Shown: piece after piece, positions 42,645 to 61,627 of the stretch
Layout: each line of letters opens with the position of its first letter
Numbering within the stretch: the first letter of the stretch is position 1
Assembly: GCA_000999095.1 (NCBI GenBank)
Contig: LCFP01000004.1
Span: 80,930 to 144,929 of the forward strand
DNA from: Candidatus Gottesmanbacteria bacterium GW2011_GWA2_43_14
Lineage (GTDB): Bacteria; Patescibacteriota; Microgenomatia; 2-02-FULL-39-11
Direction of reading: 5' to 3'
DNA: 64,000 nt
The notes under the pieces: model-generated
The model's database searches: none
The model's input: only the letters and a program-made list of their open reading frames with translations
What the model was told of the DNA's origin: nothing
Program-made: the position numbers and the translations under genes

Positions 42645-45566
42645 CTATTCAAAAGCCATGGAGGAGCTGATTTTGGCAAAACCGCCGAAAATTATGCTGA
42701 AAAGAATCAGCATCGCAAGCGGAGCAATCAAAGACAAGTAATTCCGTTTGCCCGGCCGGAAATATTTTAAAGTCAGGGAATTGGTAACGACGGAGATGGA
42801 GGATAAAGCCATGGCCAAACCTGCCAATTCGGGTTTAAGCACAAGCCCCATGAAAGCGAAAGCCCGGGCAGCGACGGGGATGCCAACGATGTTATAAAAG
42901 AGGGCGAAAAACATGTTTTGCTTAATTTTACTCATCGTATCGTGGGAAAGATTGATGGCAGTAACTACATCCCGCAGGTCGTTTTTGACGATGACGATAC
43001 CGCCTGTTTCCATCGCGACATCAGTTCCCGAACCCATGGCAATCCCTAAATCAGCCTGAGCTAATGCCGGCGCATCATTGATGCCGTCGCCGACCATGGC
43101 CACAATTTGTTTTTTATCCTGAAGTTTTTTGACTTCATTGGCTTTGTCTTCAGGTAAAACTTCCGCCAGAATATTGGTAATGCCGACCTGATCAGCAATA
43201 GCCTGGGCAGTCCGTTCATTGTCGCCGGTGATCATATAAACTTCGATATTTCTTTTTTTAAGCTGATCGATAGCTTCCCGGCTGGTTTCTTTGACGGTAT
43301 CGGCAACCGCAATCGCTCCCAGGATCTGATTTTTATCTGCCAAAAGCATGGCGGTTTTACCCATGTTTTCCAATCTAATCAGTTTGTCGTGAAGTTGACC
43401 GAGCTCAACTTTGGCGACATCTGTCATCAGTTTCCGGTTGCCCATATAATAAGTTTCGCCTTTGATGGTGCCGGTGACTCCGTGACCGGGTATGGCCTTA
43501 AAATTCTCGACATTCTTCATGAGCATATCTTTTTCCCGGGCAAAGCCTACAATGGCTTCCGCTAAAGGATGTTCAGAAGATTTTTCCAATGAAGCGGCAA
43601 TTTCCAGGATTTGAGCCTCTCCGGTTTCAGTGTAGCTTTCGATATCGGTCACAATCGGTTTGCCGTTGGTTAAAGTACCGGTTTTATCGAAAATGATGGT
43701 TGTTATCCGGCAAATCTTTTCCAAGGGTTCGCCGCCTTTTATTAAAATGCCGTGTTCCGCGCCCTTACCAGTACCGACCATCAAAGCGGTCGGAGTCGCC
43801 AAGCCCAAGGCGCAGGGACAGGCAATGACGATAACGGCCGTGAATGCCATCAGGGCAAATGATAAGGAAGCCCCAAAGATCAGGTACCAGACGAGAAAGG
43901 TGCCGATGGCGATAATGATGACGGCCGGGACAAACCAGGCTGAAATGCGGTCGGCGAAGGCCTGAATGGGTGCCTTGGAACCCTGGGCTTCCTCAATTAA
44001 ACGGATGATTTGGGCTAGCGTGGTTTCGCTGCCGACCCGGGTTGCCTCAAATTCAAAGCTGCCCATTTTATTGATGGTTGCCCCGACCACATTATCACCG
44101 CTGTTTTTTTCAACAGGTATGCTTTCGCCGGTAATCATCGATTCATCGACGGAAGATGAGCCTCTGATAATTTTGCCGTCAACCGGGATTTTTTCGCCCG
44201 GCCGGACCAGCAAAATGTCGCCTTTGACCACCTGATCCAAAGGAATATCAACCGTATTGCCATTTCTTATAACTCTGGCGGTTTTTGGCTGAAGGCCCAT
44301 CAATTTTTTTATGGCATCTGATGTTTTACCCTTGGCTCTAAGTTCCAGCCATTTTCCCAAAAGAACAAAAGTAATCAAAAAGGCGGATGTTTCAAAATAC
44401 AATTCCGGTATTTTTTCTATCACCGGCCCGAGGAGAGTACCTGTTAGGGAGAAATAACTCAAATAATTGAAAGCGCTGTAAAAATAGGCAGCCGAGGTGC
44501 CGATGGCTATCAGACTGTCCATATTAAAGGTTTTCATCCTGAGAGCGGACCACATGCCTTTATAGAAACCGTAACCCAAAACAAACTGCACCGGGGTCGA
44601 CAGGATGAAAGAGAGGACGCCGACATAAGGATTAAAGAACAGTTTGCCGATTGCACCCGGGAAAAAGTCGAACAGCATGAAATAAAGCAATGGCAAGCTC
44701 AGGATCAGGCTGGAAATGAACTTCGAAAAAAGCATTCTAGTTTCTTCCTGACGTTTTCGCGTTTCAAATTCGGTATCTTTTTGATCAATCTGACTGGCTT
44801 TATAACCGCTGTTTTCCACCGCTTTGATCAGATTTTCGACAGTCGCCTGGTTAGAGTCAAAGTCAACCAGCGCCTTTTCGGCGGCAAAATTGACGTTGGC
44901 GGAAGAGACGCCATCAACCTTTTTAAGGGAACGTTCAATCAGTTGGGCACAGGAAGAGCAGTGCATACCGGAGAGAGATAACGAAACTCTTTTGCGTATA
45001 TCAGGCGTTTCAGCCGGAGTACTTATTTCAGGAATTTGTGATTTTTTTGCCGGTATTTGATCAGGTTTATTCGACAAGACGTTATCTTGGGAGGGGAGAG
45101 GGTTGAATAGCGGGGCATTATCCAAAGATCCGGAAAGTTTTGACATAAAATTCTTCACTTCTCCATTACCGAAAGATTGTTGGTATTCGGATTTTTGGAA
45201 TTTGCTGATTTTACCATCAAAAAATGGTTCACCATGATCATTTAGAAAAACACGCCCTTGCGCTTCAACTCTTGATTCAATTTTAACCGGAACACTGCTT
45301 CTTGTCACTTTTGCCCCAGCGGTGCTTTTATTAGCTTCCGTTCCAACACTTTCTTCCTGGAGTGCTTCATAGCCTGCCCGTTTGACCGCTTCGATCACTT
45401 CGGTCAGGCTGTTTTTACTTTGGTCAAGAGTGAGAACGGCCAGCTGTTTTTGGAAACTGACATTTATATCGGAAACACCCGGTAAAGCCGCCAGTTCCTC
45501 TTTCGTAACCACTTCACAGGAGCGGCAATGCATGCCTTTGATATTTAATTTCAGCTTTTTTTTCAT
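42645..45566 (-). CDS. copA: copper-translocating P1B-type ATPase with two N-terminal HMA domains
   Basis: Two MxCxxC HMA domains ([18 protein letters not shown]), TM6 CPC ([12 protein letters not shown]), DKTGTLT, the YN and MxxSS TM signatures, and GDGINDAP. Confidence 0.9.
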
Positions 45567-45579
45567 TAAGAAATTTTCT

Positions 45580-45792
45580 TCAGTTTATAACCTGATAATC
45601 CGTACCTTCCAGTGATTTCTTAATTTCCGTAAGATTAATATCACGTCTGGCGGTAACTTGCGCCTCACCGGTCAGGGAAACGTTAAAATCCAAAACACCT
45701 TCGATTGAATTGACTCTGCGTTTGATAAGTTTCAGACAAGCGTCACAGGTGATGCCGGTAACGTAGAATTTTAGCGTATTTATATCGGACAT
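45580..45792 (-). CDS. copZ: HMA-domain copper chaperone
   Basis: GITCDAC MxCxxC-type motif. 70 aa. Immediately upstream of copA. Confidence 0.8.
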
Positions 45793-45804
45793 GAAAAGAC
45801 TCCT

Positions 45805-47643
45805 TTAAACAACCTTAATAATGCCGCGGGGTACCCCCATGGCGCAGGTAATCGGGTATTCACCGGGAGTTTTCGGGGTGAATTCAAGAACTATCGTTTC
45901 TCCCTTTTTAAGAAATTGGGGATTATCGGCTAAACCGGGGACGGCAATTGTTGCCATACAGCCGGAACCGTTGTCTTTGACTTCAATTTCCATTCTGACG
46001 GGCTTTCCCGCATTAACTTCAAAAGCATTTGGACTGATATCAGTATTTTGGGTATACACAGTTTTAATGATTTGCTCATCTTTATTTTCTTGAGCTTTCA
46101 CCGGAGTGACATTTGTGTTTTGGACCTGCTTTTGCCCTCCACCTCCGCAACCGCAGCCTCCGCTACCGCAAGACGCACCTCCGGCAGAATTAGCGGTTTT
46201 AACAGCGGCGGTGTCATCGGGGAGAGTCGCAGCCTGTACTTGAATACCATTGACATCATTAACCACCCTGATCGATCCGGAAAACATGCCCATACTGCAG
46301 GTAAATCGGATAACGCCTTCTTCGGAAGGCGTAAACTCAATCACATTTTCACCAGGATGGAGCAATTTTTGCACGCCGATTTTGTCGGCCACAATTGAAG
46401 CGGCACAGGTGTTGGGATCTTTGGAATCGATAACCCAGCGGACAGGTACGCCTTTTTTAACCGTGAAGACTTTCGGATTGTAACCTCCGGCATCCTGGAC
46501 CATACGGATGACCTGTTTGCCGTTTTCCAGTTGAACTCCTTCTGTATCAGCTGCTGCCACAACAGTTGTTTTCCCGGGGAAATTAAAATAACCCGGATTT
46601 AAGCCGGTCAGATTCAGGCCATTGTTAAGATTGAAAAGACTTAAGACGATAACAACGACACCGGCAATCCGGAAAAAACTTTGAGCAAAAGCTCCTTTGA
46701 CCAGCGATGTCAAACCGCCAATTCCCAGAAGTCCAGGTGCTGTCCCCAAGGCAAAAGTGCCCATGATTAAAGCGCCCGAAACAGGATTGCCTGTCGTCAT
46801 GGCAAAAAGCTGCATCGCCTGGGTGAAGCCGCAGGGCAGAAAAAAGGTCAGGCCTCCCATAAAGACAGAATTTTTATTGCTGTATTCAGCCTCTTTTTTT
46901 GAATTAATTCTCAAAATTTTTCCCACTCCGGCAGGCAGAGTCAGTTTAAAATCTTCCAGTCTGGGGGAAAGCCCGGTTAGCTGTAAACCCATCAAAAGCA
47001 TAACCATGCTTACAAAAACCGTCAGCATACCAAGGCCGAAACCGGACAGCTGGAAAAAAGAACCAAACCAACCGATTATCGCACCGAAAAAAAGATAAGA
47101 ACCTATCCTGCCAAGATTAAAAAACAGATGCGGTTTGAATTTTTCAAGAGGAGTAGCTAAAGAATGCTTTTCGGCAAACCTGGCAGAAACACCCAAAACC
47201 AAGCCGCCGATTAAAGCCATGCAGGTGGAGAAGCCGGCTGTTAACCCGATTAAAAGCACTACTAAAAGGCTGGAAGGATGATTGGAGATGGCCGGCAGGG
47301 CAATTTTAATGCCGAAAATGTCTAGGAGAACATAGCCTAAAAAGACGGCAATCAGAAAAATTATTATTTCCTGATAAATATTAAAATCGCGGGTAAATAA
47401 AGGTTTTTTTTCGGGTAGGCCGATTGAATAGCCTGCTCCTTCGATAGTCGAGTTGACCGCTTCATAGTTTAGATTACCTTTATAAGCGATTTCCGCTAAG
47501 CCCTTTTTTTGGCTGACGGCAACTTTTTTGACACCCTCAAGAGAGCAGAGTTCACCTTCAATCAAAAGCTCGCAAGAACGGCAATGCATGCCTTTTATCG
47601 GAACGGATGCTGTTTTTATCATGTTAAAAATCTTACCAGTCAA
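45805..47643 (-). CDS. fusion protein: N-terminal HMA domain + DsbD_2/CcdA-like Cys-pair membrane domain + Cys/Gly-rich linker + two cupredoxin-like Cys/Met domains
   Basis: HMA domain ([10 protein letters not shown]). TM core with GFSTC and FFLPCGFTQAM motifs. Linker ASCGSGGCGCGGGG. Two repeated extracytoplasmic domains ending FTCSMGMFSGSIRVV and ITCAMGVPRGIIKVV, each with an upstream conserved Cys (NTCAAS / GSGCMA). Confidence 0.6.
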   Translation of the reverse strand: MTGKIFNMIKTASVPIKGMHCRSCELLIEGELCSLEGVKKVAVSQKKGLAEIAYKGNLNYEAVNSTIEGAGYSIGLPEKKPLFTRDFNIYQEIIIFLIAVFLGYVLLDIFGIKIALPAISNHPSSLLVVLLIGLTAGFSTCMALIGGLVLGVSARFAEKHSLATPLEKFKPHLFFNLGRIGSYLFFGAIIGWFGSFFQLSGFGLGMLTVFVSMVMLLMGLQLTGLSPRLEDFKLTLPAGVGKILRINSKKEAEYSNKNSVFMGGLTFFLPCGFTQAMQLFAMTTGNPVSGALIMGTFALGTAPGLLGIGGLTSLVKGAFAQSFFRIAGVVVIVLSLFNLNNGLNLTGLNPGYFNFPGKTTVVAAADTEGVQLENGKQVIRMVQDAGGYNPKVFTVKKGVPVRWVIDSKDPNTCAASIVADKIGVQKLLHPGENVIEFTPSEEGVIRFTCSMGMFSGSIRVVNDVNGIQVQAATLPDDTAAVKTANSAGGASCGSGGCGCGGGGQKQVQNTNVTPVKAQENKDEQIIKTVYTQNTDISPNAFEVNAGKPVRMEIEVKDNGSGCMATIAVPGLADNPQFLKKGETIVLEFTPKTPGEYPITCAMGVPRGIIKVV

Positions 47644-50315: not shown

Positions 50316-51318
50316 TTATTTCAGATATTTGTCAAAAAATTGAAGGGATCTGGCGGAAATTTGCGCCCAGCCTAAATTGCGAAAATTGTGGTCCTGTCCG
50401 GGATACTCAAAATACTCAACCTGTTTACCTGCCTGTTTCAATGCTTCGTTCAGCTCTTTTGACCAGGCGGGATCCACTTCGGTATCAAAAAGCCCCTGGT
50501 GGAGGCTTACCGGAGTTGAAATGTAATTTAGAAAATCAATAGGGGAGGCACTTTCGGTGCCTTGATTGTTATTTGCGACTGGGCGTCTACCTCCGTAGAA
50601 TCGGGCATTATCGGAAACACGGGCGCTGGTGGGAGCCCATAAGACGAGAGCTTTGATTTTATCGGTTGCTTCAACCACCCTCAAGCCAACCTCTCCGCCC
50701 TAACTGTGCCCCCACATGCCGATTTTTTCCAGGTTAAGGAAAAGACCGTCAGATTGGTCTTGGGGATTCTTTAGATTTTTTAAGGAGGCAAGAAGGTTTA
50801 AGACGTCAATGGCATATTCGCCGGTGTCCGCGTGATACCCGCCCGTCATCCTCACTATTGCCGTGGCCACGATAGTCTGAAGCCAGGGTCAGATAGCCGT
50901 TGCGGGCCATAATATCCGCCATGGTTTGTGTGCCGTCGCCGCTTTTAAATGAGGTATTATTGAAATAGCCGTGATTGAGGATGATAACGGGAAAACCTCC
51001 GGCAGGGGATTCACCAAAGGGTATATTCATACGGCCGTAAATTTTCAGGCCGTCTGAAGAATATGAAAAAAGGTAACCGCTGTAAGAACCGTTGCGCTCA
51101 ATTTCATTTTCTATTTTAAACTCCCCATCTCCGTATGAGCGTTCCCGCAGGGAGTCAATAAAAGAAGGCTCTTTGTTTTCTTGAGGATCTGAAAAGTTTT
51201 TATTTGCGGATTCCGGTGAAGCTTCCTGTCCATTATTGCCCTGATAGAACTTTTGGAGAAGACTGAAACCGATTAAAACCGGAATAAAAAATAATAAGGG
51301 AAAGAAACGTTTCATCAA
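50316..51318 (-). pseudogene. secreted alpha/beta-hydrolase (dienelactone hydrolase/peptidase S9-like) disrupted by a frameshift and an in-frame TAG
   Basis: N-terminal part (50806..51318) has a signal peptide and runs to YRGHGNSE. C-terminal part (50316..50684) carries the Asp/His region (GQDHNF). The bridging sequence in a third frame reads ...IGMWGHS*GGEV..., i.e. the GxSxG nucleophile motif interrupted by TAG (plus strand cta at 50700..50702). A frame change lies near 50860. Confidence 0.6.
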
Positions 51319-51497
51319 CTAGCATAATTTTGGGGATCAGCTTCAAAGGTTTTTTGGCAGTTTTCCGAGCAGAAATAGTAGGTTTTGCCATCATGGTTGC
51401 TTTTATATTCCGCTTTTTCAGGATCGACCATCATTTTGCAAACCGGATCTTTAACCTTGTTTTTATTGGCGGAAAATAATTTATCTAAGAAACTCAT
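51315..51497 (-). CDS. YHS-domain metal-binding protein
   Basis: DPVCKMMVD...YYFCSENC is the YHS/TRASH motif. Start placed at the ATG at 51497, which forms an ATGA overlap with the upstream DUF305 stop. Confidence 0.7.
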   Translation of the reverse strand: MSFLDKLFSANKNKVKDPVCKMMVDPEKAEYKSNHDGKTYYFCSENCQKTFEADPQNYAS

Positions 51498-51865
51498 GGA
51501 TTTGCCTCCCATTCTTTTTGCCACATTTTCATTTGTTCAATTTCGTTCTCTTGAGCTTCTATTATATCATCTGCCAAATTTTTGATCTCTTCATGCATGC
51601 CTTTTGCTTTCGCTTCTTTGGCCATTTCAATGGCGCCTTCATGATGGACCATCATCGAGTTCATGAAAGCCATATCAAAATCTTCCCCTTCAGCCTTTTC
51701 CAGTGATTGCATCATTTCATTCATGCTGGAATTCATGGTCATCATGCCGCTGCCACCCATCATATTAGCAGGTTGAGCCTGCTGTCTGTTGTAACCTGTT
51801 ATGAGAACTGTTAACAGAATCCCGGCGATAAAAGTTGTAATTGCCAATAAATAATTATTTTTCAT
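51494..51865 (-). CDS. DUF305-family protein (Met/His-rich, copper-resistance-associated)
   Basis: Signal anchor. Met-rich stretch (MMGGSGMMTMNSSMNEMM) and the DUF305 motif MMVHHEGAIEMA. SD sequence GGTGA upstream. Confidence 0.7.
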   Translation of the reverse strand: MKNNYLLAITTFIAGILLTVLITGYNRQQAQPANMMGGSGMMTMNSSMNEMMQSLEKAEGEDFDMAFMNSMMVHHEGAIEMAKEAKAKGMHEEIKNLADDIIEAQENEIEQMKMWQKEWEANP

Positions 51866-51879
51866 TTCAAATCACCGCC

Positions 51880-51900
51880 ATCTATAGATAAGTATCTATA
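51880..51900. promoter_or_regulatory. palindromic operator-like site in the DUF305 promoter region
   Basis: ATCTATAGAT (10-bp perfect palindrome) overlaps TATAGATA-ag-TATCTATA (8-2-8 inverted repeat), 15-37 nt upstream of the DUF305 ATG. A related AGATA-tt-TATCT palindrome lies at 50223..50234. Confidence 0.4.
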
Positions 51901-51949
51901 AATATTAGCATAACAAAGATTAAGATTCCATGAAGAAAGACAGATTCAG

Positions 51950-52612
51950 TCAGACCCGATGGTGATCGATGCCGCGGTAGGCTTTAATAAATTTTTCTAT
52001 TCTCTCTTCATTAAACTCATTGAATTTATCCAACTTGGTCCAGGCTGTCAGGGCGATTTTAGTATCAAGCTGAGGGTAGGGGGCAAGTATTACTTTATCC
52101 TTATATTTTTTTATGACGGCTGTTAATCCGGCAACCAGTTTTTGGCATTCATCTTGCCCTTCGGCACTGTCAGTGGCCTCTTTTTGGCTGTCCCCATCCG
52201 GCGTGCAATTATACTGTACCATAATCCCGCCGTCCTCCAGATTATGAAGCTGGAGTTCGTCAGGAATAGGGGACCCGCTTACTCCCCAGGGGGCTTTATT
52301 ATTCACGTGGGTACCTGAAGTCGGAGGCAGGGAATTGTAAGATTCGTGGGTATCGGTGATGTTTTGGATATGTTCATTGCCTAAGGTGGGGACAAATTCC
52401 CCGGGCTTCGGTTTAGAGGCTTCTCTGATAAACCAGTATCCGCCAGCAAGAAACACCAAACAAGCGGCAATAATTATTCCGTATTTCTGCAACTTACCCA
52501 GCCGCAGCTGTTTATTCATCTGTTCCCGGTAAAATGCACGTTTTATCTTCCTGCGTTCTTTTTTGGGTAATCCTTCAGGTAAATCAGGTCTGTTTTTCAT
52601 AACAGATTTCAC
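51950..52612 (-). CDS. DUF3105-domain protein
   Basis: N-terminal TM segment, then LGNEH...PPTSGTH...HNLEDGG motifs typical of DUF3105. Confidence 0.65.
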   Translation of the reverse strand: MKSVMKNRPDLPEGLPKKERRKIKRAFYREQMNKQLRLGKLQKYGIIIAACLVFLAGGYWFIREASKPKPGEFVPTLGNEHIQNITDTHESYNSLPPTSGTHVNNKAPWGVSGSPIPDELQLHNLEDGGIMVQYNCTPDGDSQKEATDSAEGQDECQKLVAGLTAVIKKYKDKVILAPYPQLDTKIALTAWTKLDKFNEFNEERIEKFIKAYRGIDHHRV

Positions 52613-52725
52613 AAACTTTCAGTAAGGTGTTCTGAATTATTAGTAAGGACAAAAATATAGGGAAAAAGCCTAAAAAGAAATAAGGATAAACTTAAGAAAC
52701 CGGTGAAATATCCATAAATTTATAT

Positions 52726-53466
52726 TTATTTTAAGGCTGCATCAATCATAGGCTTGATACTTTCATAGGGAAGAGCCCCGGGTATAAGCTGGGTACTGCC
52801 ATTTTCAGTCAGAATGATTGTACCGGGAGTTCCAGTTACACCTTCTTCACTTCCTTTGGCCATCTGGTCCTGCACTTTTTGGGTATACTTACCCGAGTCA
52901 AGACATTTTTGGAATTTGGTCTGATCAACCCCTACTTCATTGGCCAGGGAACCCAGTTTGTCCAGCGCAAAGCCGGTGCCATTGGAGGTCGTACGCTCAA
53001 AAATGGCATCAATATATTTCCAAAAAACGTCATTGCCTCCCAATTCGTTGACACACCAGCCTGCCTCCGCTTCTTTTTGTGCATTCTGATGAAAGTTTAA
53101 AGGGTAATCACGATACACCCATTTTACTTTATCACCGTATTCTTTCATGACCTGCTGCATGGTGGGATGAAAATTTTTACAGTAGGGACATTCCAGATCA
53201 GAGTATTCAATAAGTGCTACTTTGGCGTTTTTGTTGCCTCTCACGCGGTCATCACTTTCCAATTCCGGCTTTTTGGCTGCAGGTTGGGGAGAGGGGATTT
53301 GCGCGGAAACGGTGTCGTTTCCTCCTGTCCCGGCCTGGATTTCCGCCACGCCCGGGTTTCCTTTTTCCAGAAGTTTAACTTTGGTGTAAAGGGAACCGAT
53401 TGCAAACGAAGCGACAATTAGAAGGGCAACCAGAATTAATGAGCTTTTAGATTTTACTTCAGACAT
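52726..53466 (-). CDS. DsbA-family thiol:disulfide oxidoreductase (BdbD-like)
   Basis: Signal anchor. Thioredoxin-fold CxxC (ECPYCKNF). Confidence 0.8.
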   Translation of the reverse strand: MSEVKSKSSLILVALLIVASFAIGSLYTKVKLLEKGNPGVAEIQAGTGGNDTVSAQIPSPQPAAKKPELESDDRVRGNKNAKVALIEYSDLECPYCKNFHPTMQQVMKEYGDKVKWVYRDYPLNFHQNAQKEAEAGWCVNELGGNDVFWKYIDAIFERTTSNGTGFALDKLGSLANEVGVDQTKFQKCLDSGKYTQKVQDQMAKGSEEGVTGTPGTIILTENGSTQLIPGALPYESIKPMIDAALK

Positions 53467-53468
53467 AT

Positions 53469-53485
53469 TACTACAAAGTGTAGTA
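53469..53485. promoter_or_regulatory. BlaI/CopY-type operator (perfect 7-3-7 palindrome TACTACA-aag-TGTAGTA) abutting the dsbA-like start codon
   Basis: Perfect inverted repeat located 2 nt upstream of the ATG (minus strand) of 52726..53466. A near-identical site lies upstream of the BlaI/CopY-like gene (54817..54833). Confidence 0.5.
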
Positions 53486-53510
53486 GTAAAGCTGACGGTT
53501 TGTCAATAGG

Positions 53511-54446
53511 TCAAAGCGGGAGTATATAAAGTCCGGAACATGAATGGTGGCATTCTGTATTCGGGCGGCAAAAAGATTTATGTCCCCCGTTTTCCGGACC
53601 GGTTTCCGCAGTTGACACTGAAGATAAAGCAAACACCAGAAAAATTATAAGAGTGAAAAAGGTTTGGAGGAGATTTTTAAGTGAGGGTTTTTTGGCGGGA
53701 ACTTTCAGATTAAGAAGCGCCTTTATTCTGGCCTCAAGAGTTTCGTACGCGTTTAATCCGGCAACCGCCGGCAGGGGAGCGGGTTTGTATGTTATGAGTT
53801 TTTTAAGAACATCTGACAGACAGTATTGGTCATTTTTTTGCCGGATGGCCTGCCGGTCAGCCTCAAGTTCGCGATTCAGTCTGTAATTTCCTATCAGATC
53901 TGAAACAAGCGGAAAGAAGGGAAATAAGCATTGGGTTAGATCGGCCAACAAAAGGGTGGCCGTATCTTTGTTTTCCAAATGGTATTTTTCGTGGCGCAGA
54001 ATGACTGCCAGTTCCTTCAGGCTAACCAGCCTGATAATTCCGGTGGTTATGAATATCCTAGGGTTTAAAAAGCCAAAGCAAAAAGCGGTCGGAGCATTTT
54101 TTGGGAGGATCATTACTTTATTTTCCAAACCTAAATCTTTAATAAGTCTTCTCGTCCGTTTATTCCCGGTAACCAGCGGGGAAAGGGTGCGGCTAAAGCG
54201 GTATATTTTAAAGAACGAGATAAGCAGTTTTATGGCAGTATGGAGTATCAGTAGGGACAAAAATATAAAAATAAAATCTCCAACAAGAGGGCTTGAGCCA
54301 AATGATATGTTTTTTACCATTTCCCGACAGTAATAAAGCGCATGATGAAAAAAAACCGGAAAAAACCTAAACAATATTAACAGATAACCTGATATAAGAA
54401 AGGTAAAAAGAAATGAAAAAACAAAAAGATATTTATTTATTTTCAT
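53511..54446 (-). CDS. M56-family peptidase, BlaR1/MecR1-like transducer protease domain without a penicillin-binding sensor domain
   Basis: 4 TM segments plus a zinc-protease motif HEKYHLENKD (compare BlaR1 HELYHxxRxD). It overlaps the upstream repressor gene by 14 bp. 311 aa, and there is no C-terminal PBP domain. Confidence 0.7.
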   Translation of the reverse strand: MKINKYLFVFSFLFTFLISGYLLILFRFFPVFFHHALYYCREMVKNISFGSSPLVGDFIFIFLSLLILHTAIKLLISFFKIYRFSRTLSPLVTGNKRTRRLIKDLGLENKVMILPKNAPTAFCFGFLNPRIFITTGIIRLVSLKELAVILRHEKYHLENKDTATLLLADLTQCLFPFFPLVSDLIGNYRLNRELEADRQAIRQKNDQYCLSDVLKKLITYKPAPLPAVAGLNAYETLEARIKALLNLKVPAKKPSLKNLLQTFFTLIIFLVFALSSVSTAETGPENGGHKSFCRPNTECHHSCSGLYILPL

Positions 54447-54813
54447 CCGGATTGGCCAATAATTTTAACAGGCGCTTTTTTTTATCCTTGGGGAGCCGTT
54501 CGATCGATTGGGCAAAAGAGGCAACCGCCGAATCGCCAAAGGAAGAGAAAAACTGGCGCATAAATGACCGGGCGGCGCTTTTACCGTAATCGACTTTTGA
54601 AATTTTGGGAAAGTAGTACAGGCGGGAATCATGAGTTTCCTTCAAGACTAAGCCTTTTTGATAAAGGCGGGAAAGGATGGTGGCCACGGTAGTATAAGCA
54701 AGTTTTTTCTTAAGGTTGATTTTTCTCACGACATCACGCACAGAACAATCACCGCATGCCCAGACAATTTCCATAATCAGTTGTTCCAGATGGCTTAATG
54801 ATTTGACGGACAT
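54433..54813 (-). CDS. BlaI/MecI/CopY-family transcriptional repressor
   Basis: Penicillinase-repressor winged-helix N-terminus (LSHLEQLIMEIVWACGDCSVRDVVRKI...TTVATILSRLYQKGLV) and a C-terminal dimerisation helix. Confidence 0.8.
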   Translation of the reverse strand: MSVKSLSHLEQLIMEIVWACGDCSVRDVVRKINLKKKLAYTTVATILSRLYQKGLVLKETHDSRLYYFPKISKVDYGKSAARSFMRQFFSSFGDSAVASFAQSIERLPKDKKKRLLKLLANPDENK

Positions 54814-54816
54814 ATT

Positions 54817-54833
54817 TACTACAGAGTGTAGAA
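54817..54833. promoter_or_regulatory. BlaI/CopY-type operator (TACTACA-gag-TGTAGAA), autoregulatory position
   Basis: TACA/TGTA dyad typical of BlaI/MecI/CopY boxes, 3 nt upstream of the repressor ATG. It shares a roughly 20-nt conserved block (CTACAC-T-y-TGTAGTAA-ATATGTC) with the site at 53469. Confidence 0.5.
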
Positions 54834-54866
54834 TAGGATTAATTAAATTTCAACAAGGAGATTGGA

Positions 54867-57161
54867 TCAAACGGTTACTAAATCCTTTTCCGCACGGTTA
54901 AGAAGGACGGCGTTGGTGGCGACAATGATAGAGGAGATGCTCATCAGAAGCGCTGAGATTTCCGGTCTCAAGATAATACCGTATTTGGGATATAAGACTC
55001 CGGCGGCAACAGGAATGGCCAGCAAATTATAGATTGAAGCCCAAAAAAGGTTTTGCTTCATTTTGGTAACGGTGGCTTTGCTTAGACGGATAGCCCTTAA
55101 AATATCCGCCGGATCGGATTTCATCAGAACTACCTTGGCGGTTTCGATGGCCACATCAGTACCGGCTCCGATGGCAATGCCGATGTCAGCCTGGGCAAGG
55201 GCGGGTGCGTCGTTGACCCCGTCACCGACCATGGCGACAAATTTTACTTCTTTTTGAAGTTTTTTGACGTATGAGGCTTTATCTTCTGGGAGCACTTCAG
55301 AAAAGATCCTATCTATATTAAGCTGCTTGCCGATAGCCTCTGCAGTTTTTTTGTTATCTCCGGTGATCATCGCAACCTCTAACCCGAGCTCCTTCATGCG
55401 AGTAATCGCTTGCTTGGCGTTTTCCTTCACAGGATCAGAAGCGGCTGCGACACCAGCAATCTTAGTGTTAACTGCAAGTACCATAATTGTCTTGCCCCCT
55501 GAGAAAAGTCTATCTATATCATTTTGAAGTGGTGAAATATCAACCTTTGAATCTTTCATTAATTTTACGGTTCCCACAAGTACATGCTTACCGTCAACTA
55601 CTGCCTCAACCCCATGGCCTGCTAGATTTTTAAACTTTTCAACCCTGGTAGAAATACTGACTTTTCTTCTTTTAGCTTCCTCTAAAACCGCCAGACTCAA
55701 CGGGTGCGAAGATTTAGCTTCGGCTGCAGCGTCAAGAGCAATAATATCGTTCTCGGTAAATCCTTTGGAGGCAACAACATCAGTAATTTTGGGCTTGCCT
55801 TCAGTGAGGGTTCCAGTTTTATCAAGAACGACAGCCTGGATTCGTGAAACCTGTTCGAGAGTAGGAGCATCTTTAATTAAAATATTATGTTTGGCGCCAA
55901 GGCCTGTTCCGACTGCTACAGCAGTAGGGGTGGCCAGGCCTAAAGCATCGGGGCAGGCAATTACTACAGTTGATATGGCAAAAGTCAGAGCGAAAAGTAG
56001 AGGCTGTCCTAATATAAAATACCAAACAGCAAAAGTCAGAAGACCTCCTCCTACTGCCACAATCACCAGATATTTGGCAAAACGGTCGGCCAGTTTCTGG
56101 CCGGGAGCCTTGGAATTTTGGGCAATTTCAACCATTTTGACTATCTGGGCCAAAGCTGTGTCAGAGCCAATTTTGGTCGCTTTGAATTTGACTGAACCTG
56201 AGGTATTGATTGAACCACCAATTACCGTATCACCAACACTTTTAGTAACAGGCAAAGATTCTCCTGTCACCAGGGATTCATCAATAGCAGTTTCACCATC
56301 GATGATTTCTCCATCAACCGGAATTTTATCTCCAGGCTTGAGAATAAGAATATCCCCGAGTTTGACTTCCGATGTAGGCACAAAAGTCTCTTCCCCGTCT
56401 TTCCAGAGCCTTGCCTGTGGAGGAACAAGATCAAACAATGCTTGGAGGGCATCTGTAGTCCCGCGTCTACTTTTCATCTCCATCCAATGACCAAAGAGAA
56501 CAAAGGTAGTGAGCATGGCCGCGGCTTCATAGAATGATTCTTCACTGCCCAGGAGTGATAAGACGACACTGAATACGTAAGCCGCAGTAATACCAACAGC
56601 AATCAGAACCGCCATGTTAAGAGTTTTGGCTTGCAATGCTTTGTATGTTGAGTAAAGAAATATCCAGCCTGAATAAAAGAAAACGGGAGTAGTCAAAAGA
56701 AACATAATCCAATTGGCAGAAATTGGCGTTGGAAGCCTTAACCCCAAAATATTTGTACCAAGCGGAGAGTAGGCAATAATAGGCAAGGTGAGTATGAGGG
56801 CGACAAAAAACTTATTGCGGATGTCTTCTTCCATGAGTTTAGCCATTTCCCGTCCCGCTAAACCCCCATGCTCCATACCCATCGCCATAGTCATGCTAAT
56901 CTTGAACTTTTCCCAGGAGGACATCTCTGAGACAGGTTTCATCATATGCTCGCCATGTTTCATAGCCCCATGCTCGCCCGCTTTGCCCTTCGGGCTTCGA
57001 GGGGCAGGCATTCCATCGTGGTTCATTTTACCCTCTGCTATTTTTTTATCCTTCATAGCATTAGCGACGAGGGGCATCCCGCATTTTGGGCAAGTCCCGG
57101 GTTTACTCCGATGTACATCGGAGTGCATCGGACATGTATAATTTTCGGTTTCTGAGGTCAT
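54867..57161 (-). CDS. P1B-type heavy-metal ATPase with a Cys4 N-terminal metal-binding domain, a His/Met-rich linker and an atypical CPD transmembrane motif
   Basis: N-terminal CPMHSDVHRSKPGTCPKCGM (HMBD/zinc-ribbon-like). His/Met-rich segment (HDGMPAPRSPKGKAGEHGAMKHGEHMMKP...MTMAMGMEHGG). TM6 reads IACPDALGLATP, confirmed on the DNA at 55936..55952. DKTGTLT, YN and MSISS motifs, and GDGVNDAP. Confidence 0.9.
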   Translation of the reverse strand: MTSETENYTCPMHSDVHRSKPGTCPKCGMPLVANAMKDKKIAEGKMNHDGMPAPRSPKGKAGEHGAMKHGEHMMKPVSEMSSWEKFKISMTMAMGMEHGGLAGREMAKLMEEDIRNKFFVALILTLPIIAYSPLGTNILGLRLPTPISANWIMFLLTTPVFFYSGWIFLYSTYKALQAKTLNMAVLIAVGITAAYVFSVVLSLLGSEESFYEAAAMLTTFVLFGHWMEMKSRRGTTDALQALFDLVPPQARLWKDGEETFVPTSEVKLGDILILKPGDKIPVDGEIIDGETAIDESLVTGESLPVTKSVGDTVIGGSINTSGSVKFKATKIGSDTALAQIVKMVEIAQNSKAPGQKLADRFAKYLVIVAVGGGLLTFAVWYFILGQPLLFALTFAISTVVIACPDALGLATPTAVAVGTGLGAKHNILIKDAPTLEQVSRIQAVVLDKTGTLTEGKPKITDVVASKGFTENDIIALDAAAEAKSSHPLSLAVLEEAKRRKVSISTRVEKFKNLAGHGVEAVVDGKHVLVGTVKLMKDSKVDISPLQNDIDRLFSGGKTIMVLAVNTKIAGVAAASDPVKENAKQAITRMKELGLEVAMITGDNKKTAEAIGKQLNIDRIFSEVLPEDKASYVKKLQKEVKFVAMVGDGVNDAPALAQADIGIAIGAGTDVAIETAKVVLMKSDPADILRAIRLSKATVTKMKQNLFWASIYNLLAIPVAAGVLYPKYGIILRPEISALLMSISSIIVATNAVLLNRAEKDLVTV

Positions 57162-57181
57162 AATTTAATGATACAAGATTT

Positions 57182-57847
57182 TCATTTCGAATTCCCTGAA
57201 ATAGCGGATTTAGCGATCATTTCGTCCAGAAGAAGTTTTACATTGGGAATAAAACCGGGAACTTCGTTTTTATATACTTTGTACACCGACCCGAATTTCC
57301 TGAGCATCTTTTTTTCTTCACTTTTTGCCAGACGGATGTAGCGGAAAATAAGGATCGGCGCCATGACAAGCGTTATAATGGTTGGCCACTGGATGAGAAA
57401 ACCAACAATTATAAGGATAAAGGCCAGATATTGAGGGTGGCGCAGATATTTATAGACACTAATAACAGCCAGACTTTGTTGCTTTTGGGCTTTATAAAGG
57501 ACTTCCCAGGCTTTACCCAAAAGAATTAACCCTCCGATAATAAGCGCGTAACTGATGATATGCAGGATATTAAAGTGAGGATCACCTTTCAGACCCAACA
57601 GGGTGTTTAATATATGACCGTTGTTGTGTGTAAAATCCAAGCCTAACCGACTTCCAAAGAACGAAGTTAACAGGTAAATTGTCAAAGGAAATCCATACAT
57701 TTCGGCAAACAGCGCGACTATAAAGGCTCCAAAGATACAGTAAGTCTGCCAATCAATCTTTGTTCTTGGTTTGAAAGCGCTATAAATAAAATAGAGAAAA
57801 AGAACAATATTGAATAAAACCAGAAGCCAGTTACCATACTCATACAT
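57182..57847 (-). CDS. isoprenylcysteine carboxyl methyltransferase (ICMT/PEMT)-family membrane protein
   Basis: C-terminal region RHPQY...EE..L...FG..Y..Y is characteristic of the ICMT family. 5-6 TM segments. Confidence 0.65.
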   Translation of the reverse strand: MYEYGNWLLVLFNIVLFLYFIYSAFKPRTKIDWQTYCIFGAFIVALFAEMYGFPLTIYLLTSFFGSRLGLDFTHNNGHILNTLLGLKGDPHFNILHIISYALIIGGLILLGKAWEVLYKAQKQQSLAVISVYKYLRHPQYLAFILIIVGFLIQWPTIITLVMAPILIFRYIRLAKSEEKKMLRKFGSVYKVYKNEVPGFIPNVKLLLDEMIAKSAISGNSK

Positions 57848-57898
57848 ATACGAACAGTGTAACAGTAAGAGATTAAGAATTTATGAGGCCTTTATCAA

Positions 57899-58282
57899 TT
57901 ATCTGCTTCTATCAATAATTTCTTTAATAATTTTATCAATTTCGATAGGTAGCGCACCGAGATGTGCTTTCGGGAAAAACCGGGGAAGGATAATTGGGCG
58001 CATGCCTGAAATATACGTAATCCCATCCTTCCGGTAGACGTTTATCTTACAGGGCAAACATAATCCTATCTTGATATCAGCCTGAAGTACAGTATAGGCG
58101 CTTCTAGCATTGCAAATCTCGATAATCTTGAATGGTTCAGCCTTAAAACCCTTCTCTTTCAATGTGGCTGTGACATCATGGATATAAAGCACGCGAAATC
58201 CGGCATTTTTCGTTTCTTTCTCAACCGCTTTAACCGCTTGATCAAATGATTTCTCCGTTGTAACCGTGTAATCAAAATCCAT
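57899..58282 (-). CDS. DUF302-domain protein
   Basis: 127 aa with the DUF302 fold signature (FRVLYIHDVTATLKEKGF...IIEICNA). Confidence 0.7.
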   Translation of the reverse strand: MDFDYTVTTEKSFDQAVKAVEKETKNAGFRVLYIHDVTATLKEKGFKAEPFKIIEICNARSAYTVLQADIKIGLCLPCKINVYRKDGITYISGMRPIILPRFFPKAHLGALPIEIDKIIKEIIDRSR

Positions 58283-58306
58283 ACGCTTATTTAAAAAGTT
58301 ATTACT

Positions 58307-58402
58307 TTAGAAATGCTGGCAGGCATTGACGGGCATTTCTGCTGATTGAATTTTGCCGCATTTTGGGCAAGTCAGATTTGCTGTGGTAATAATTTGGTCC
58401 AT
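58307..58402 (-). CDS. 31-aa Cys-containing mini-ORF, truncated paralogue of the 60006..60239 protein
   Basis: MDQIITTANLTCPKCGKIQSAEMPVNACQHF aligns with residues 6-36 of the 77-aa protein (LTCPLCHAEQSTEMPINACQYF). Not in the track because it is under 60 aa. It may be a gene remnant. Confidence 0.35.
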   Translation of the reverse strand: MDQIITTANLTCPKCGKIQSAEMPVNACQHF

Positions 58403-58425
58403 AAAATAAGTTTAAAATTTAAATA

Positions 58426-58830
58426 TTAATTTTTTTTAAGAGAAAAACCTTTGGATTGCCAGTCGTGCATCCCTAAGATGTGATTGTAAACATTGGTGTA
58501 GCCGAGTTCAGTCAGGCGTTTGGCGGCGATAGCACTCATCCGGCCGCTTTTGCAATACAAGATGATTTTGGCATTTTTATCTTTGGGGAATTTATTGAGA
58601 TTTTCATCAATCCGGTCATAGGGAATAAAAGCATCGGTTTTTTCAATTTCTCCCTCATAAGGCGTGTGGACATTGACAAAATAAAAATCTTTATTTTGCA
58701 GCATGGTTTTTAACTGGTCACTGGTTATATCAGTATATTCAAACGCTGAAGGAGTTTGATGAATTTTATAAAAATACAACCAACTGCCAAGAAAAACAGC
58801 CAGGAAAAGAATAATTAGGAATTTTTTCAT
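58426..58830 (-). CDS. rhodanese-domain protein (membrane-anchored/exported)
   Basis: N-terminal TM/signal segment and a rhodanese active-site loop (ILYCKSGRMS). Start placed at MKKFLIIL (58830) to avoid overlap with the upstream gene. Confidence 0.75.
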   Translation of the reverse strand: MKKFLIILFLAVFLGSWLYFYKIHQTPSAFEYTDITSDQLKTMLQNKDFYFVNVHTPYEGEIEKTDAFIPYDRIDENLNKFPKDKNAKIILYCKSGRMSAIAAKRLTELGYTNVYNHILGMHDWQSKGFSLKKN

Positions 58831-58831
58831 C

Positions 58832-59341
58832 TTAAAAACAATGGCGAAGTTTGGCTTCGAAATTTTCAGGATCGGCAATTCCGGCAACTAAGATTTTGTC
58901 CTTATATCCGCCTGAAGCACTAGTTTCAATAATAACATCACCGAAATGAAAAATTTTACCCAGGAATGATTGTTTAATGGTGACGGAACGGATGTTGTTA
59001 AGATCATAAACTTTCTCCTGGATGGAAAAAATACCCTGATGTTTGACAAGATGCTTTTCAGTTAAAAAGAAGGATTTTCCGCGCCAGTGAAGAATAGTGG
59101 AAATGATAAAAAATATCTGGATAACGCTTTTGAATACATGGATAAAAGCCAATAAAAGAACTACAAAATGGTGAATGTTGAAAGGTAAAGTCAATTTCAG
59201 AAAGTAGATCCGGAGTAAAGAAAAGTTTAAAAAAGCATAGAGACCGTCAGTAATCAGTAAAAACATCGTCAGCTGAAAAATCAGCAGGGTCATGTTTCCT
59301 TTAATTACGTCTGATGGTGATGTCGTGTGTGTCCATTCCAT
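58832..59341 (-). CDS. bPH_2 (DUF304, YdbS/YdbT-like) membrane protein
   Basis: Two TM segments followed by a PH-like domain (ITDGLYAFLNFSLLRIYF...VYDLNNIRSVTIKQSFLGKIFHFGDVIIET). Confidence 0.5.
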   Translation of the reverse strand: MEWTHTTSPSDVIKGNMTLLIFQLTMFLLITDGLYAFLNFSLLRIYFLKLTLPFNIHHFVVLLLAFIHVFKSVIQIFFIISTILHWRGKSFFLTEKHLVKHQGIFSIQEKVYDLNNIRSVTIKQSFLGKIFHFGDVIIETSASGGYKDKILVAGIADPENFEAKLRHCF

Positions 59342-59347
59342 AATTAA

Positions 59348-59695
59348 TTAAGGCAGCAGAATACCTCCCCGATAGCCCGGAATCCACCACGGAATAAAGA
59401 CATAGATAATAAAGATAAACCCGGCGGTCAGAGACAAAAGCAGATAAAGAGTCAGGCCTCTCAGGCGGTCATAGAAAGTTTTATACCCTTTAAGGGTGCA
59501 ACTGTGTTGATGATGCAGATATTGCCAAAAAAGAAGGGCTGTCAAAAGAAGTGCCGGCAGAAGAAAGATTTTATTGCTTGCTTCTTGGCTTAGCATGAAT
59601 AAAATTCCCGAAGAAACAAGCAGAAAAAGCAACATCCCGCAACAGATAAGGTGGATAAACAGAAAAGGAAAAACAGCCCCGACTGCCTGTCTCAT
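59348..59695 (-). CDS. hypothetical membrane protein
   Basis: 115 aa with 3 TM segments. Same operon. Confidence 0.4.
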   Translation of the reverse strand: MRQAVGAVFPFLFIHLICCGMLLFLLVSSGILFMLSQEASNKIFLLPALLLTALLFWQYLHHQHSCTLKGYKTFYDRLRGLTLYLLLSLTAGFIFIIYVFIPWWIPGYRGGILLP

Positions 59696-59961
59696 TATTT
59701 TTCAGGTGATTGATGGTGTTTATTGCCTTTGGAGTGATCTTTCATCATAAAGACATGTAAGATGGGACAGGCGAGAATTGCTCCATAAAAAAGTAGGTTG
59801 TTGATGGGAACTTTAAAGACGGAAACCGCTGCGAACGTAGCGATTAAGACTGCTCCGCAAAGATATAGCCATTTGGCCCGAGGGTTTATTTTAGGACTCT
59901 GGTTGGATTCATTCCCGGATTCCTGCTGTTTAGACTTTTCATCATTATTACAACAATTCAT
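59695..59961 (-). CDS. DUF2933-like small membrane protein (N-terminal MNCCNN, C-terminal His-rich tail)
   Basis: Start moved to the internal Met (MNCCNNDEKS...) to remove the overlap with 60006..60239. TM helix plus ACPILHVFMMKDHSKGNKHH tail reminiscent of DUF2933. Confidence 0.45.
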   Translation of the reverse strand: MNCCNNDEKSKQQESGNESNQSPKINPRAKWLYLCGAVLIATFAAVSVFKVPINNLLFYGAILACPILHVFMMKDHSKGNKHHQSPEK

Positions 59962-60005
59962 CTTTATCAGGATACCAGATGAAAGATTAAGAAATGATGA
60001 ACAAG

Positions 60006-60239
60006 TTATACAGGATTTATGATTTTTCTGATAACTACTGTTTCTGAATGCTGTTTCGGTGGGCACTTGGTTTTGCTGTACGAGCAGAAAACACAACAAT
60101 CTCCCTCTTTCGGTTTTAGCATTTCCCCGCATTTTTGGCTTTGGTAAAAATACTGACAGGCGTTAATAGGCATTTCCGTTGATTGTTCAGCATGGCACAG
60201 AGGACAGGTTAATACTGCAGCTGTAACGATTTTTTTCAT
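60006..60239 (-). CDS. small Cys-rich (9 Cys per 77 aa) putative metal-binding protein
   Basis: CPLCH...C..., CGEM and GDCCVFCSYSKTKCPP motifs. Immediately downstream of the two-component system (4-bp overlap with the kinase gene). Confidence 0.5.
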   Translation of the reverse strand: MKKIVTAAVLTCPLCHAEQSTEMPINACQYFYQSQKCGEMLKPKEGDCCVFCSYSKTKCPPKQHSETVVIRKIINPV

Positions 60240-61627
60240 ACAAGCGGAAGAGTTATGGTAATGGTAGTGCCTTTATTAAAGATACTTTTTACGGTAATAG
60301 TACCTTTATAGATATCGATAATGGATTTGGAAATGGCCAACCCCAAACCGGAACCTGAGATATTTTGAGTTTTTGCCCCGCGGTAAAATCTTTCAAAAAT
60401 ATATGGCAGATCTTCTTTGGCTATTCCAAGACCCCTGTCACTAATGGTTAGAATTGCTATGTTTCCGTGAGTTTTGAGCTTAATATCAATATGTCCCTTT
60501 TCTTTCGAATACTTTACGGCGTTATCAAGGCAATTGAGGATAGCCCTGCCCAGTTTATCTTCTTTGCCGTACACAAAAACATCTGGTTGGAAGTCTAAAT
60601 TTACCCTGATTGATTTTGCCTGGGCCAGTTTGACCGCAATTTCACCAAGCTCGGACAAGAGACTGCTTAAATTGACCTTATTATTATCAGCTTTAGCCTG
60701 CGAAGCTTCACTCCAGGCCAGATCGAGGATATTTTGCAGAGTATTCGACAGTCTGTTGTTATCAATAATAGCCTCCTCGATTACTTTTTTATATTCAGCT
60801 TTTGACCGTTCTTTTTGAAGAGAGACCTCCAAACCGGTCCTTTGAGTGGCAAAGGGTGTTTTAAGTTCATGCGCCACATCGGCGATAAACTGCCGTTCAC
60901 GTTTGAAAGCCAGTTTGATCCGGTCAAGGAGTTTATTGAAAGTGGTGGCCAGTTCGGAAATTTCATCACCTGTTCCCGGATCGTTTATCCGCTCACTGAG
61001 ATTTTCACCGGAAATTTTATTTAATTTACGGCTAATATCGGAAACTGGCTTTAATGCACGTACTGAAAACCAATAACCGCCAAGTAAAGTAGGGAACAGC
61101 ATGACGGCAAAAGCGGCGATTAAAGTCAAAGATAATTTATTTAATGACGACTGAATAACATCGATCGGATGACCTACTAAAACGACGCCCGATAGCTCGC
61201 CTTCAAAATAAACGGGGGATGCGTAAAATCTGATACTTTGACTGCCCAGTCTGGTATTGGTTAAGATATTTTTCCGACTATTGATCGCCTGGCGGTGCAT
61301 AGCGGCAAAGGTATTTCTGTCAAAACTGTTCATCAACGAACTGGAGATGATATCTCCCCGGGTATTCATGATGATGACCAACATCCCCGGAATTTCCGAA
61401 AACTCGTAAAGAAAGGCTCTTTGAGCCAGGACTTCATTCGAGTCTTGTCCCTGTTTAGAGACGACTTCAACCACTTTATTGCCATGGGAAATAAGAGAAC
61501 TGTCAGTTTGTTGATAAAGAAGCTGGCTGGTCAACAAAAAAAAGCCTGCAAATATAACTGTAGTTGTTAACAAAAAAGCCAGGAAATACCAAATGGTCAG
61601 GCGGAATTTGATACTGCGAATGTTCAT
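60236..61627 (-). CDS. sensor histidine kinase (two TM segments, periplasmic sensor, HAMP, HisKA, HATPase_c)
   Basis: H-box (ADVAHELKTP) and N, G1 and G2 boxes (DNAVKYS, DRGLGI, GSGLGLAI). Confidence 0.85.
   Translation of the reverse strand: MNIRSIKFRLTIWYFLAFLLTTTVIFAGFFLLTSQLLYQQTDSSLISHGNKVVEVVSKQGQDSNEVLAQRAFLYEFSEIPGMLVIIMNTRGDIISSSLMNSFDRNTFAAMHRQAINSRKNILTNTRLGSQSIRFYASPVYFEGELSGVVLVGHPIDVIQSSLNKLSLTLIAAFAVMLFPTLLGGYWFSVRALKPVSDISRKLNKISGENLSERINDPGTGDEISELATTFNKLLDRIKLAFKRERQFIADVAHELKTPFATQRTGLEVSLQKERSKAEYKKVIEEAIIDNNRLSNTLQNILDLAWSEASQAKADNNKVNLSSLLSELGEIAVKLAQAKSIRVNLDFQPDVFVYGKEDKLGRAILNCLDNAVKYSKEKGHIDIKLKTHGNIAILTISDRGLGIAKEDLPYIFERFYRGAKTQNISGSGLGLAISKSIIDIYKGTITVKSIFNKGTTITITLPLV

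Follow-up and report, generated by a model that had tools for sequence, protein, structure and literature searches.

A CPD-type P1B ATPase in a patescibacterial copper island, a probable copper exporter of the CopB lineage

The pump gene and its metal-site motifs

The window, the whole stretch of 64,000 nucleotides analyzed here, comes from Candidatus Gottesmanbacteria bacterium GW2011_GWA2_43_14 (contig LCFP01000004.1, positions 80,930 to 144,929, forward strand) and carries a complete gene for a P1B ATPase of 764 amino acids (54867..57161, minus strand; open reading frame [ORF] and Pfam). The product of this gene is probably a functional P1B ATPase that exports copper and belongs to a branch of the CopB lineage (the historical 'P1B-3') in which the third CPx residue of transmembrane helix M4 is Asp, and the pump would most likely be a Cu(I) exporter. 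We propose this because the other Cu-class ligands are kept, the genomic context is that of copper, and pumps with a CPH motif, once assigned to Cu(II), are now assigned to Cu(I). Which ion is transported and in which oxidation state, whether the Asp (D405) serves as a ligand, and how the gene is regulated are, here and below, matters of inference.

P1B subclasses are assigned from the M4 CPx motif plus the M5 and M6 motifs. The translation of 55926..55961 (minus strand) reads IACPDALGLATP and places the predicted M4 metal-site motif, C403-P404-D405, at 55947..55955 (minus strand), with GAT as the Asp codon. The original prediction had located CPD at 55936..55952; it read the motif correctly, and its span covers only part of it. 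Both CPC of P1B-1 and CPH of P1B-3 are absent from M4, and CPD lies, as had been claimed, outside the textbook CPC/CPH/SPC classes. The YN and MSxSS motifs that had been named are present: M5 carries Y711-N712 (55026..55031, minus strand; Cu-type YN(x)4P with P717), a pair invariant over the CPD, CPH, and CPC sequences of alignment A2, and M6 carries M740-S-I-S743-S744 (54930..54944, minus strand; MxxSS), of which M740 and S743 are invariant in that alignment. The MSxST of P1B-3 is absent from M6, where MSISS is found. An M2 motif, G224-H-W-M-E228-M229, was recognized by lineage alignment at 56475..56492 (minus strand).

The P1B catalytic motifs are all intact: TGES at residue 299, the DKTGT phosphorylation motif with D447 (55809..55823, minus strand; invariant in alignment A2), SSHP at 484–487, and GDGVND at 646. 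Pfam assigned the domains HMBD, E1-E2_ATPase, and HAD Hydrolase. Among the NCBIfam models, TIGR01525 (heavy-metal P1B) scored 598 bits against a cut-off of 346, and TIGR01511 (copper P1B subfamily) scored 580 bits against a cut-off of 397. Domains, catalytic motifs, and the TIGR01511 score together bear out the earlier call of a copper-type P1B ATPase. The ZntA models gave 331–370 bits against cut-offs above 1000, and the Zn-type (K in M5 and D in M6; P1B-2 DxG) and Co-type (SPC, HEGxT; P1B-4) signatures are absent. A Zn/Cd or Co class was ruled out by the M5 and M6 motifs and the family-model scores.

At the N-terminus, Pfam found no match to an HMA domain (GMxCxxC), and an HMBD stands in its place (PF19335, E 9e-11, cut-off passed). 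This putative cytosolic metal-binding domain, C10-P-M-H13 ... C24-P-K-C27-G, spans residues 7–33 (57063..57143, minus strand), reads NYTCPMHSDVHRSKPGTCPKCGMPLVA, and aligns to residues 40–66 of LpCopA. It is followed by a Met/His-rich linker, recognized by composition (residues 34–112; 56826..57062, minus strand), which ends with MGMEHGGLAGREMAKLM right before helix MA. The 79 residues of the linker include 13 Met (16%) and 5 His (6%), compared with 3.9% Met and 1.6% His in the whole protein. The original prediction had described a CPxH...CPxCG domain combined with a CopB-like His/Met-rich stretch; both elements are there, but the stretch is Met-rich rather than His-rich. The linker is probably disordered, judging by its low predicted local distance difference test (pLDDT) score, and a motif related to xMGHGxGMxMxxM is kept ahead of MA throughout the CPD clade. 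An identical protein from a public gene call (P0001) is without the HMBD because the call starts at M46, which drops 45 N-terminal residues (57027..57161 of the window) and leaves 719 amino acids. Several other database homologues of 674–728 amino acids also have no HMBD match, probably from the same kind of start call.

The structure was modeled with AlphaFold 2 on a diverse alignment (pLDDT 90.7, predicted template modeling score 0.86); an earlier run on a shallow alignment of 79–90%-identical homologues was discarded (pLDDT 64.5, M4 below 50). The model has the eight-helix P1B membrane domain (MA, MB, M1–M6), with helices at residues 101–131, 133–177, 183–203, 211–243, 353–383, 388–424, 685–719, and 733–763, and M4 breaks at 401–404. 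It superposed on the E1 state of AfCopA (7r0g) with a template modeling score of 0.89–0.91. The best solved relatives of the pump are LpCopA (3RFU, E 6e-168) and Archaeoglobus CopA. In the HMMER alignment from which the residue mapping was taken, M183, E212, H225, E228, D359, C403, Y711/N712, M740, and S744 of the window pump correspond to M148, E189, Q202, E205, D337, C382, Y688/N689, M717, and S721 of LpCopA, respectively, and D405 corresponds to C384 of LpCopA and C382 of AfCopA. In CopA, both CPC cysteines and the M1 methionine form the entry site, and the CPC cysteines and the M6 methionine form the high-affinity site; mutation of these cysteines abolishes Cu(I) binding (PMC9433437).

Occurrence and lineage of CPD pumps

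The nearest homologues were taken as the best 120 matches in a collection of 5.8 billion proteins. All 120 carry CPD; they are 78–100% identical to the window pump and come from Microgenomates and other Patescibacteria. A protein identical to the window pump is present on a 192-kb contig in ENA. This identical protein and the 120/120 CPD homologues rule out faulty sequencing or assembly and a private mutation alike. The same count speaks against the earlier suggestion that close orthologues might carry CPH or CPC, which would have pointed to a point mutation or an error. His (CAT) to Asp (GAT) takes one nucleotide change; Cys to Asp takes two.

An exhaustive HMMER search was run over 1.84 billion cluster representatives (50% identity). 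The top four representatives (905–679 bits) are all CPD, and CPC starts only at 616 bits; the best 150 representatives include 134 CPC, 7 CPD, 6 CPH, and 1 SPD. A DNA-pattern scan for C-P-D-A-L-G-L-A-T-P in one genome per GTDB species yielded at least 120 matches. All matches listed (at least 120 species genomes) are P1B ATPases, 44–78% identical to the window pump, and they fall into about 10 bacterial phyla. They include Actinomycetota (Nocardia, Streptomyces, Mycolicibacterium, Microbacterium, and others), Alpha-, Beta-, and Gammaproteobacteria (Xanthobacter, Bradyrhizobium, Mesorhizobium, Ralstonia, Thermomonas, and others), and Chloroflexota, Patescibacteria, Gemmatimonadota, Acidobacteriota, Bacteroidota, Armatimonadota, Dormibacterota, and Myxococcota. 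A metagenome-assembled genome of Candidatus Bathyarchaeota (L110, VBBR01000102.1) also contains part of a CPD pump, HMBD included, with 66% identity to the window pump, which suggests horizontal transfer or a binning contaminant. Plasmid-borne CPD pumps were found in Nocardia farcinica, Rhodococcus, Mycolicibacterium, Cryobacterium, and Phenylobacterium; annotation pipelines give the subtype a generic label, the Prokaryotic Genome Annotation Pipeline (PGAP) naming the plasmid pumps only "heavy metal translocating P-type ATPase".

CPD was therefore not the novelty that the original prediction had made of it, being common (at least 120 species genomes, about 10 phyla, plasmids) and having been placed inside P1B-3 by Cubillas et al. 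(2017; PMC5552934), who described, as a new subtype, three rhizobial Cu-ATPases with a "novel CPD motif". The literature searched for a CPD motif in P1B/CPx ATPases held nothing relevant besides that paper. Judged from these sequence comparisons, the CPD variant is real and selected, yet common, already noted, and within P1B-3. Since the 2017 report had already recognized CPD there, the window pump joins a known subtype; what is new here is a patescibacterial CPD pump with an HMBD N-terminus. The window locus itself is ordinary. The CPD clade as a whole is a worthwhile biochemical target: it has members on plasmids from cultivated strains of Nocardia, Rhodococcus, Mycolicibacterium, and Phenylobacterium, its pumps often stand beside a normal CopA, and a deep clade with a fixed carboxylate is a natural experiment on ligand hardness versus selectivity and release kinetics.

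The pump cores of 95 CPD, 121 CPC, and 7 CPH sequences were aligned, and neighbor-joining (NJ) trees were built from 633 columns, with the Asp column left out and no outgroup. CPD and CPH together were split from CPC with a bootstrap of 98–99/100, and the CPH group received 95/100. As the original prediction had asked, CPD pumps came out as a clade: 94 of the 95 formed an exclusive group with no non-D member inside (bootstrap 67/100). The unstable 95th sequence (P0124) combines CPDALALATP with a CopB-like MSAST, where the other CPD pumps have MSxSS. It and P0263, which has an SPD motif (VASPDALALATP), are rare intermediates near the CPD/CPH node.

Nine positions are common to CPD and CPH pumps and different in CPC pumps: H225, M229, G234, L365, A369, G373, P684, M701, and A715. 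H225 and M229 belong to the M2 motif GHWxEM, and L365, A369, and G373 are located in M3. H225 and M229 occur in all of the CPD sequences (95/95 each); among the CPH sequences, H225 occurs in 7/7 and M229 in 6/7. CPC pumps have K/R/Q at position 225 and A/S/E at position 229. About 20 other positions, mostly round M4 and the P-domain (A352-P353, T411, A414, P457), are CopA-like in CPD pumps and different in CPH pumps. Because the residues shared with CopB coexist with these CopA-like positions, the CPD clade looks like a sister group of CopB, or a grade at its base.

The closest described systems are the Rhizobiales 'VIc' CPD Cu-ATPases of Xanthobacter autotrophicus, of Nitrobacter hamburgensis, and of Bradyrhizobium sp. 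(Cubillas et al., 2017; PMC5552934). Like these, the window pump has CPD, YN(x)4P, an MSxSS-type M6 (MSGSS in VIc, MSISS in the window), and a His-poor N-terminus, and the VIc pumps also group with CPH pumps. The Xanthobacter and Bradyrhizobium CPD pumps recovered by the GTDB scan are 49–51% identical to the window pump. Unlike the window pump with its HMBD, VIc pumps, in common with most actinobacterial and proteobacterial CPD pumps, have a longer N-terminus that includes an HMA-like domain without CxxC and a CGYHCxG...PxHxC motif. With the CopB/P1B-3 (CPH) pumps, exemplified by those of Archaeoglobus fulgidus, Enterococcus hirae, and Sphaerobacter thermophilus, the window pump shares GHWxEM in M2, L365/A369/G373 in M3, P684, M701, and A715, and its Met-rich N-terminus may be comparable to their His/Met-rich one. 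It differs from them in having Asp for His at the third CPx position and MSxSS for MSxST in M6, and the CopB representatives are far more His-rich N-terminally; two of them (P0170, P0205) also carry an HMBD.

The CopA/P1B-1 pumps LpCopA (3RFU) and AfCopA (7R0G) are 42–48% identical to the window pump over the whole core. The fold, YN, MxxSS, and the equivalents of M148, E189, E205, and D337 are CopA-like in the window pump, and LpCopA has an N-terminal YTCPMH...CPxCGM element, so that some accepted CopAs carry an HMBD-type element too. CopA differs in having CPC for CPD, an HMA CxxC domain that the window pump lacks, K/R/Q for H225, F for L365, and V for A369. The ZntA/P1B-2 membrane site consists of CPC and an M6 Asp. 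It resembles the CPD site in combining thiolate with carboxylate, but its carboxylate is on M6, outside the CPx motif, and its M5 and M6 carry K and D, not YN and MxxSS. The ZntA structures are only 27–29% identical to the window pump, and the family scores are much lower.

Transport cycle and metal specificity

Cytosolic copper is Cu(I), and Met-rich motifs are typical Cu(I) ligands. In a standard P1B cycle, cytosolic Cu(I) would be captured by the HMBD and the Met/His linker, or would be delivered bound to a small ligand, and would then pass to an entry site located where M1, M2, and M4 end on the cytosolic side (M183, H225/E228/M229, C403/D405). It would be occluded among M4, M5, and M6 (C403, D405, Y711/N712, M740/S744) and released outside once D447 was phosphorylated. 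In a copper-resistance island with a canonical HMA-CopA and CopZ, the CPD pump is the second ATPase.

Several points weigh against Cu(I) export by a CopB-lineage pump. As a hard ligand, a carboxylate suits Cu(I) poorly. In a gapless alignment with a fragment that we take to be the corresponding part of SERCA, D405 falls on what is presumably E309, a hard-cation ligand. The main CPD clade has a bootstrap of only 67/100 in a simple, outgroup-free NJ analysis with 7 CPH sequences. The CsoR-family neighbors of patescibacterial CPD pumps have a Cys-His-His fingerprint, not the Cu(I)-type Cys-His-Cys. A canonical CopA is encoded in the same island, and the two pumps would therefore not be redundant. 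No experimental characterization of any CPD pump was found in the literature searched. Finally, C382 of AfCopA ligates Cu(I) directly, and binding depends on it (PMC9433437); because the equivalent Cys in CopA is a ligand, D405 sits at the position of a direct metal ligand.

Such points could be accommodated if CPD pumps were a specificity or mechanism class of their own, with a Cys/Asp site for Cu(II), for another divalent ion of borderline or hard character (Zn, Co, Ni, Fe, Mn), or for proton coupling, a role that the homologous M4 Glu has in P2 pumps; the CPD pump would then complement the Cu(I)-specific CopA of the island instead of duplicating it. We regard this as possible but unlikely. 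The shift toward Cu(II) or a harder metal that the original prediction had raised is likewise speculative; sequence signatures and gene context point to copper, in whichever oxidation state. An invariant Asp over a deep clade implies selection for the carboxylate, which replaces a direct Cu(I) thiolate ligand and, by the comparison with the presumed SERCA fragment, matches the acidic ligand that P2 ATPases have in M4. The Cys-His-His fingerprint of the patescibacterial CsoR/RcnR-family neighbors offers more N-donors, PGAP calls CPD proteins only 'heavy metal translocating', and a separate specificity would explain why the pump is so frequently retained beside a canonical Cu(I) CopA, as in 20/120 loci and in the window. 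On the other hand, the Cu(I)/Ag(I)-defining YN in M5 and MxxSS in M6 are all kept, Zn- and Co-type signatures are absent, the copper available in the cytosol is Cu(I), and the neighbors are copper genes, not genes of the czc, nik, or cnr type. The chemistry of the third CPx residue has been central to a long dispute over whether CopB carries Cu(II) or Cu(I), and for CopB (CPH) pumps, the sisters of the CPD pumps, Cu(I) has since replaced the Cu(II) that was claimed earlier (review PMC7558416).

We give little credence to the view that the CPD pump is a low-turnover, high-affinity copper pump of the CopA2/CcoI/FixI kind, which would not detoxify but load secreted or membrane cuproproteins such as the cupredoxin-domain protein of the island. 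The presence of a pair of copper ATPases in a single island is reminiscent of the division of labor between CopA1 and CopA2 (PMC7558416), and nearby genes encode DsbA-type oxidoreductases and a membrane protein with a cupredoxin domain. Nevertheless, the pump groups with CopB and not with the FixI/CcoI type, CPD pumps are found together with CsoR, multicopper oxidase, and Cus genes on plasmids and in resistance islands, as is typical of detoxification, and in one related locus (L125) the cupredoxin gene adjoins the CPC CopA/CopZ pair as much as the CPD pump. It is scarcely credible that CPD arose through faulty sequencing or assembly, or that it marks a gene in decay recently inactivated by mutation: nothing was found in favor of this, and against it stand the identical protein on an independent contig, the CPD motif in every nearest homologue and in at least 120 species genomes, the intact catalytic motifs, and the full-length ORF.

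Gene neighborhoods and N-terminal modules

The pump gene of the window belongs to a row of genes on one strand, which encode DUF302, ICMT-like, pump, BlaI/CopY-family repressor, M56 protease, DsbA-like, DUF3105, and DUF305 proteins. The gene for the ICMT-family membrane methyltransferase-like protein (57182..57847, minus strand; Pfam ICMT/PEMT) is 20 bp upstream of the pump, and that for the BlaI/MecI/CopY-family repressor (54433..54813, minus strand; Pfam Penicillinase_R, E 3e-25) is 53 bp downstream. The C-terminal CxC motif of CopY is absent from this repressor. The next gene (53511..54446, minus strand; Pfam Peptidase_M56/M48) encodes a BlaR1-like membrane metalloprotease of the M56 family that carries HEKYH and is a probable signal-transducing partner of the repressor. 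Its extracytoplasmic tail is short and Cys/His-rich (HKSFCRPNTECHHSC), at the place where a penicillin-binding sensor would normally sit. The pair (53511..54813) could be a metal-sensing proteolytic switch, and it is kept near a CPD pump in three loci of related Patescibacteria (L121–L123). The pump is probably co-transcribed with the ICMT-like gene and controlled by the adjacent repressor and M56 pair. A promoter and terminator scan of 51000..60500 gave no more sites than shuffled sequence and was uninformative on operon structure, and a CsoR-type gene, which adjoins the pump in several CPD loci, was sought in the window and not found.

Farther downstream of the pump are genes for a DsbA-like thioredoxin (52726..53466), a DUF3105 protein (51950..52612), and a DUF305 protein (51494..51865), all on the minus strand and assigned by Pfam; DsbA and DUF305 recur round CPD pumps. 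A canonical copper module lies about 9 kb from the CPD pump in the same island (42645..47643). It comprises a CPC CopA of 973 amino acids with two HMA domains (42645..45566), a CopZ-like HMA protein of 70 amino acids (45580..45792), and an HMA-DsbD_2-double-cupredoxin membrane protein of 612 amino acids (45805..47643), again on the minus strand and by Pfam. The CPC CopA and the CPD pump are 48% identical. In related Patescibacteria an equivalent gene set surrounds the CPD pumps, and in two loci (L125, L126) the CopA/CopZ/cupredoxin-protein trio directly adjoins the CPD pump.

Neighboring ORFs were clustered across 120 diverse CPD loci (L001–L120). A second, HMA-type CopA was found in 20/120 loci, followed by the CsoR family (9/120), OmpR-type regulators (8/120), SHOCT (7/120), multicopper oxidase (7/120), ICMT-like proteins (6/120), CusA-like RND proteins (6/120), CusB-like proteins (4/120), MerR (4/120), and DUF302 (4/120). 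The neighborhoods of CPD pumps are copper-related. The CPD locus of the Nocardia plasmid pNF1 carries DUF305, SHOCT, DUF2933, and multicopper oxidase genes; the plasmid of Phenylobacterium zucineum carries DUF2933, ICMT directly upstream of the pump, the pump, and a major facilitator superfamily transporter. An ICMT-like gene stands beside the CPD pump across phyla, in Patescibacteria and in beta- and alphaproteobacteria (L128, 6059..6718; L113, L034, L101, L072, L015, and L092). Upstream of CPD pumps from Patescibacteria and Saccharibacteria, CsoR/RcnR-family repressors showed the Cys-His-His fingerprint (L033, 3180..3452; L041, 1867..2172; L072, 1645..1911), whereas the CsoR-family genes adjoining actinobacterial CPD pumps carry the Cu(I)-type Cys-His-Cys. 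A conserved, Pfam-less protein of about 130 amino acids (...LGIFMPHMHDE.TGEF...VESGL.VSFQ...) is encoded on the same strand directly upstream of the CPD pump in five loci from proteobacteria and acidobacteria (L004, 540..941; L006, 7606..7995; L025, 6922..7314; L071, 3566..4015; L104, 4252..4689).

The N-termini of other CPD pumps vary. A Cys-rich module, C.C...C..C.AE.L.V.CGC..EAKQFEY, occurs as a third type in L118, L076, L031, L059, and L111 and in P0122, in which it has no Pfam match. Most actinobacterial, proteobacterial, and Chloroflexota CPD pumps of L001–L120 begin with an HMA-fold domain, for which Pfam HMA matches the C-terminal two thirds only; the same fold was seen in L127 (6674..9166; Nocardia farcinica pNF1) and L128 (6761..9148). 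In most of these pumps the loop corresponding to GMxCxxC is cysteine-free (e.g., GLxWAS, MLSALSA), and the fold is followed by a conserved C-G-[YF]-H-C-x-G-x3-P-x-H-x-C with three Cys and two His, apparently a relocated metal site.

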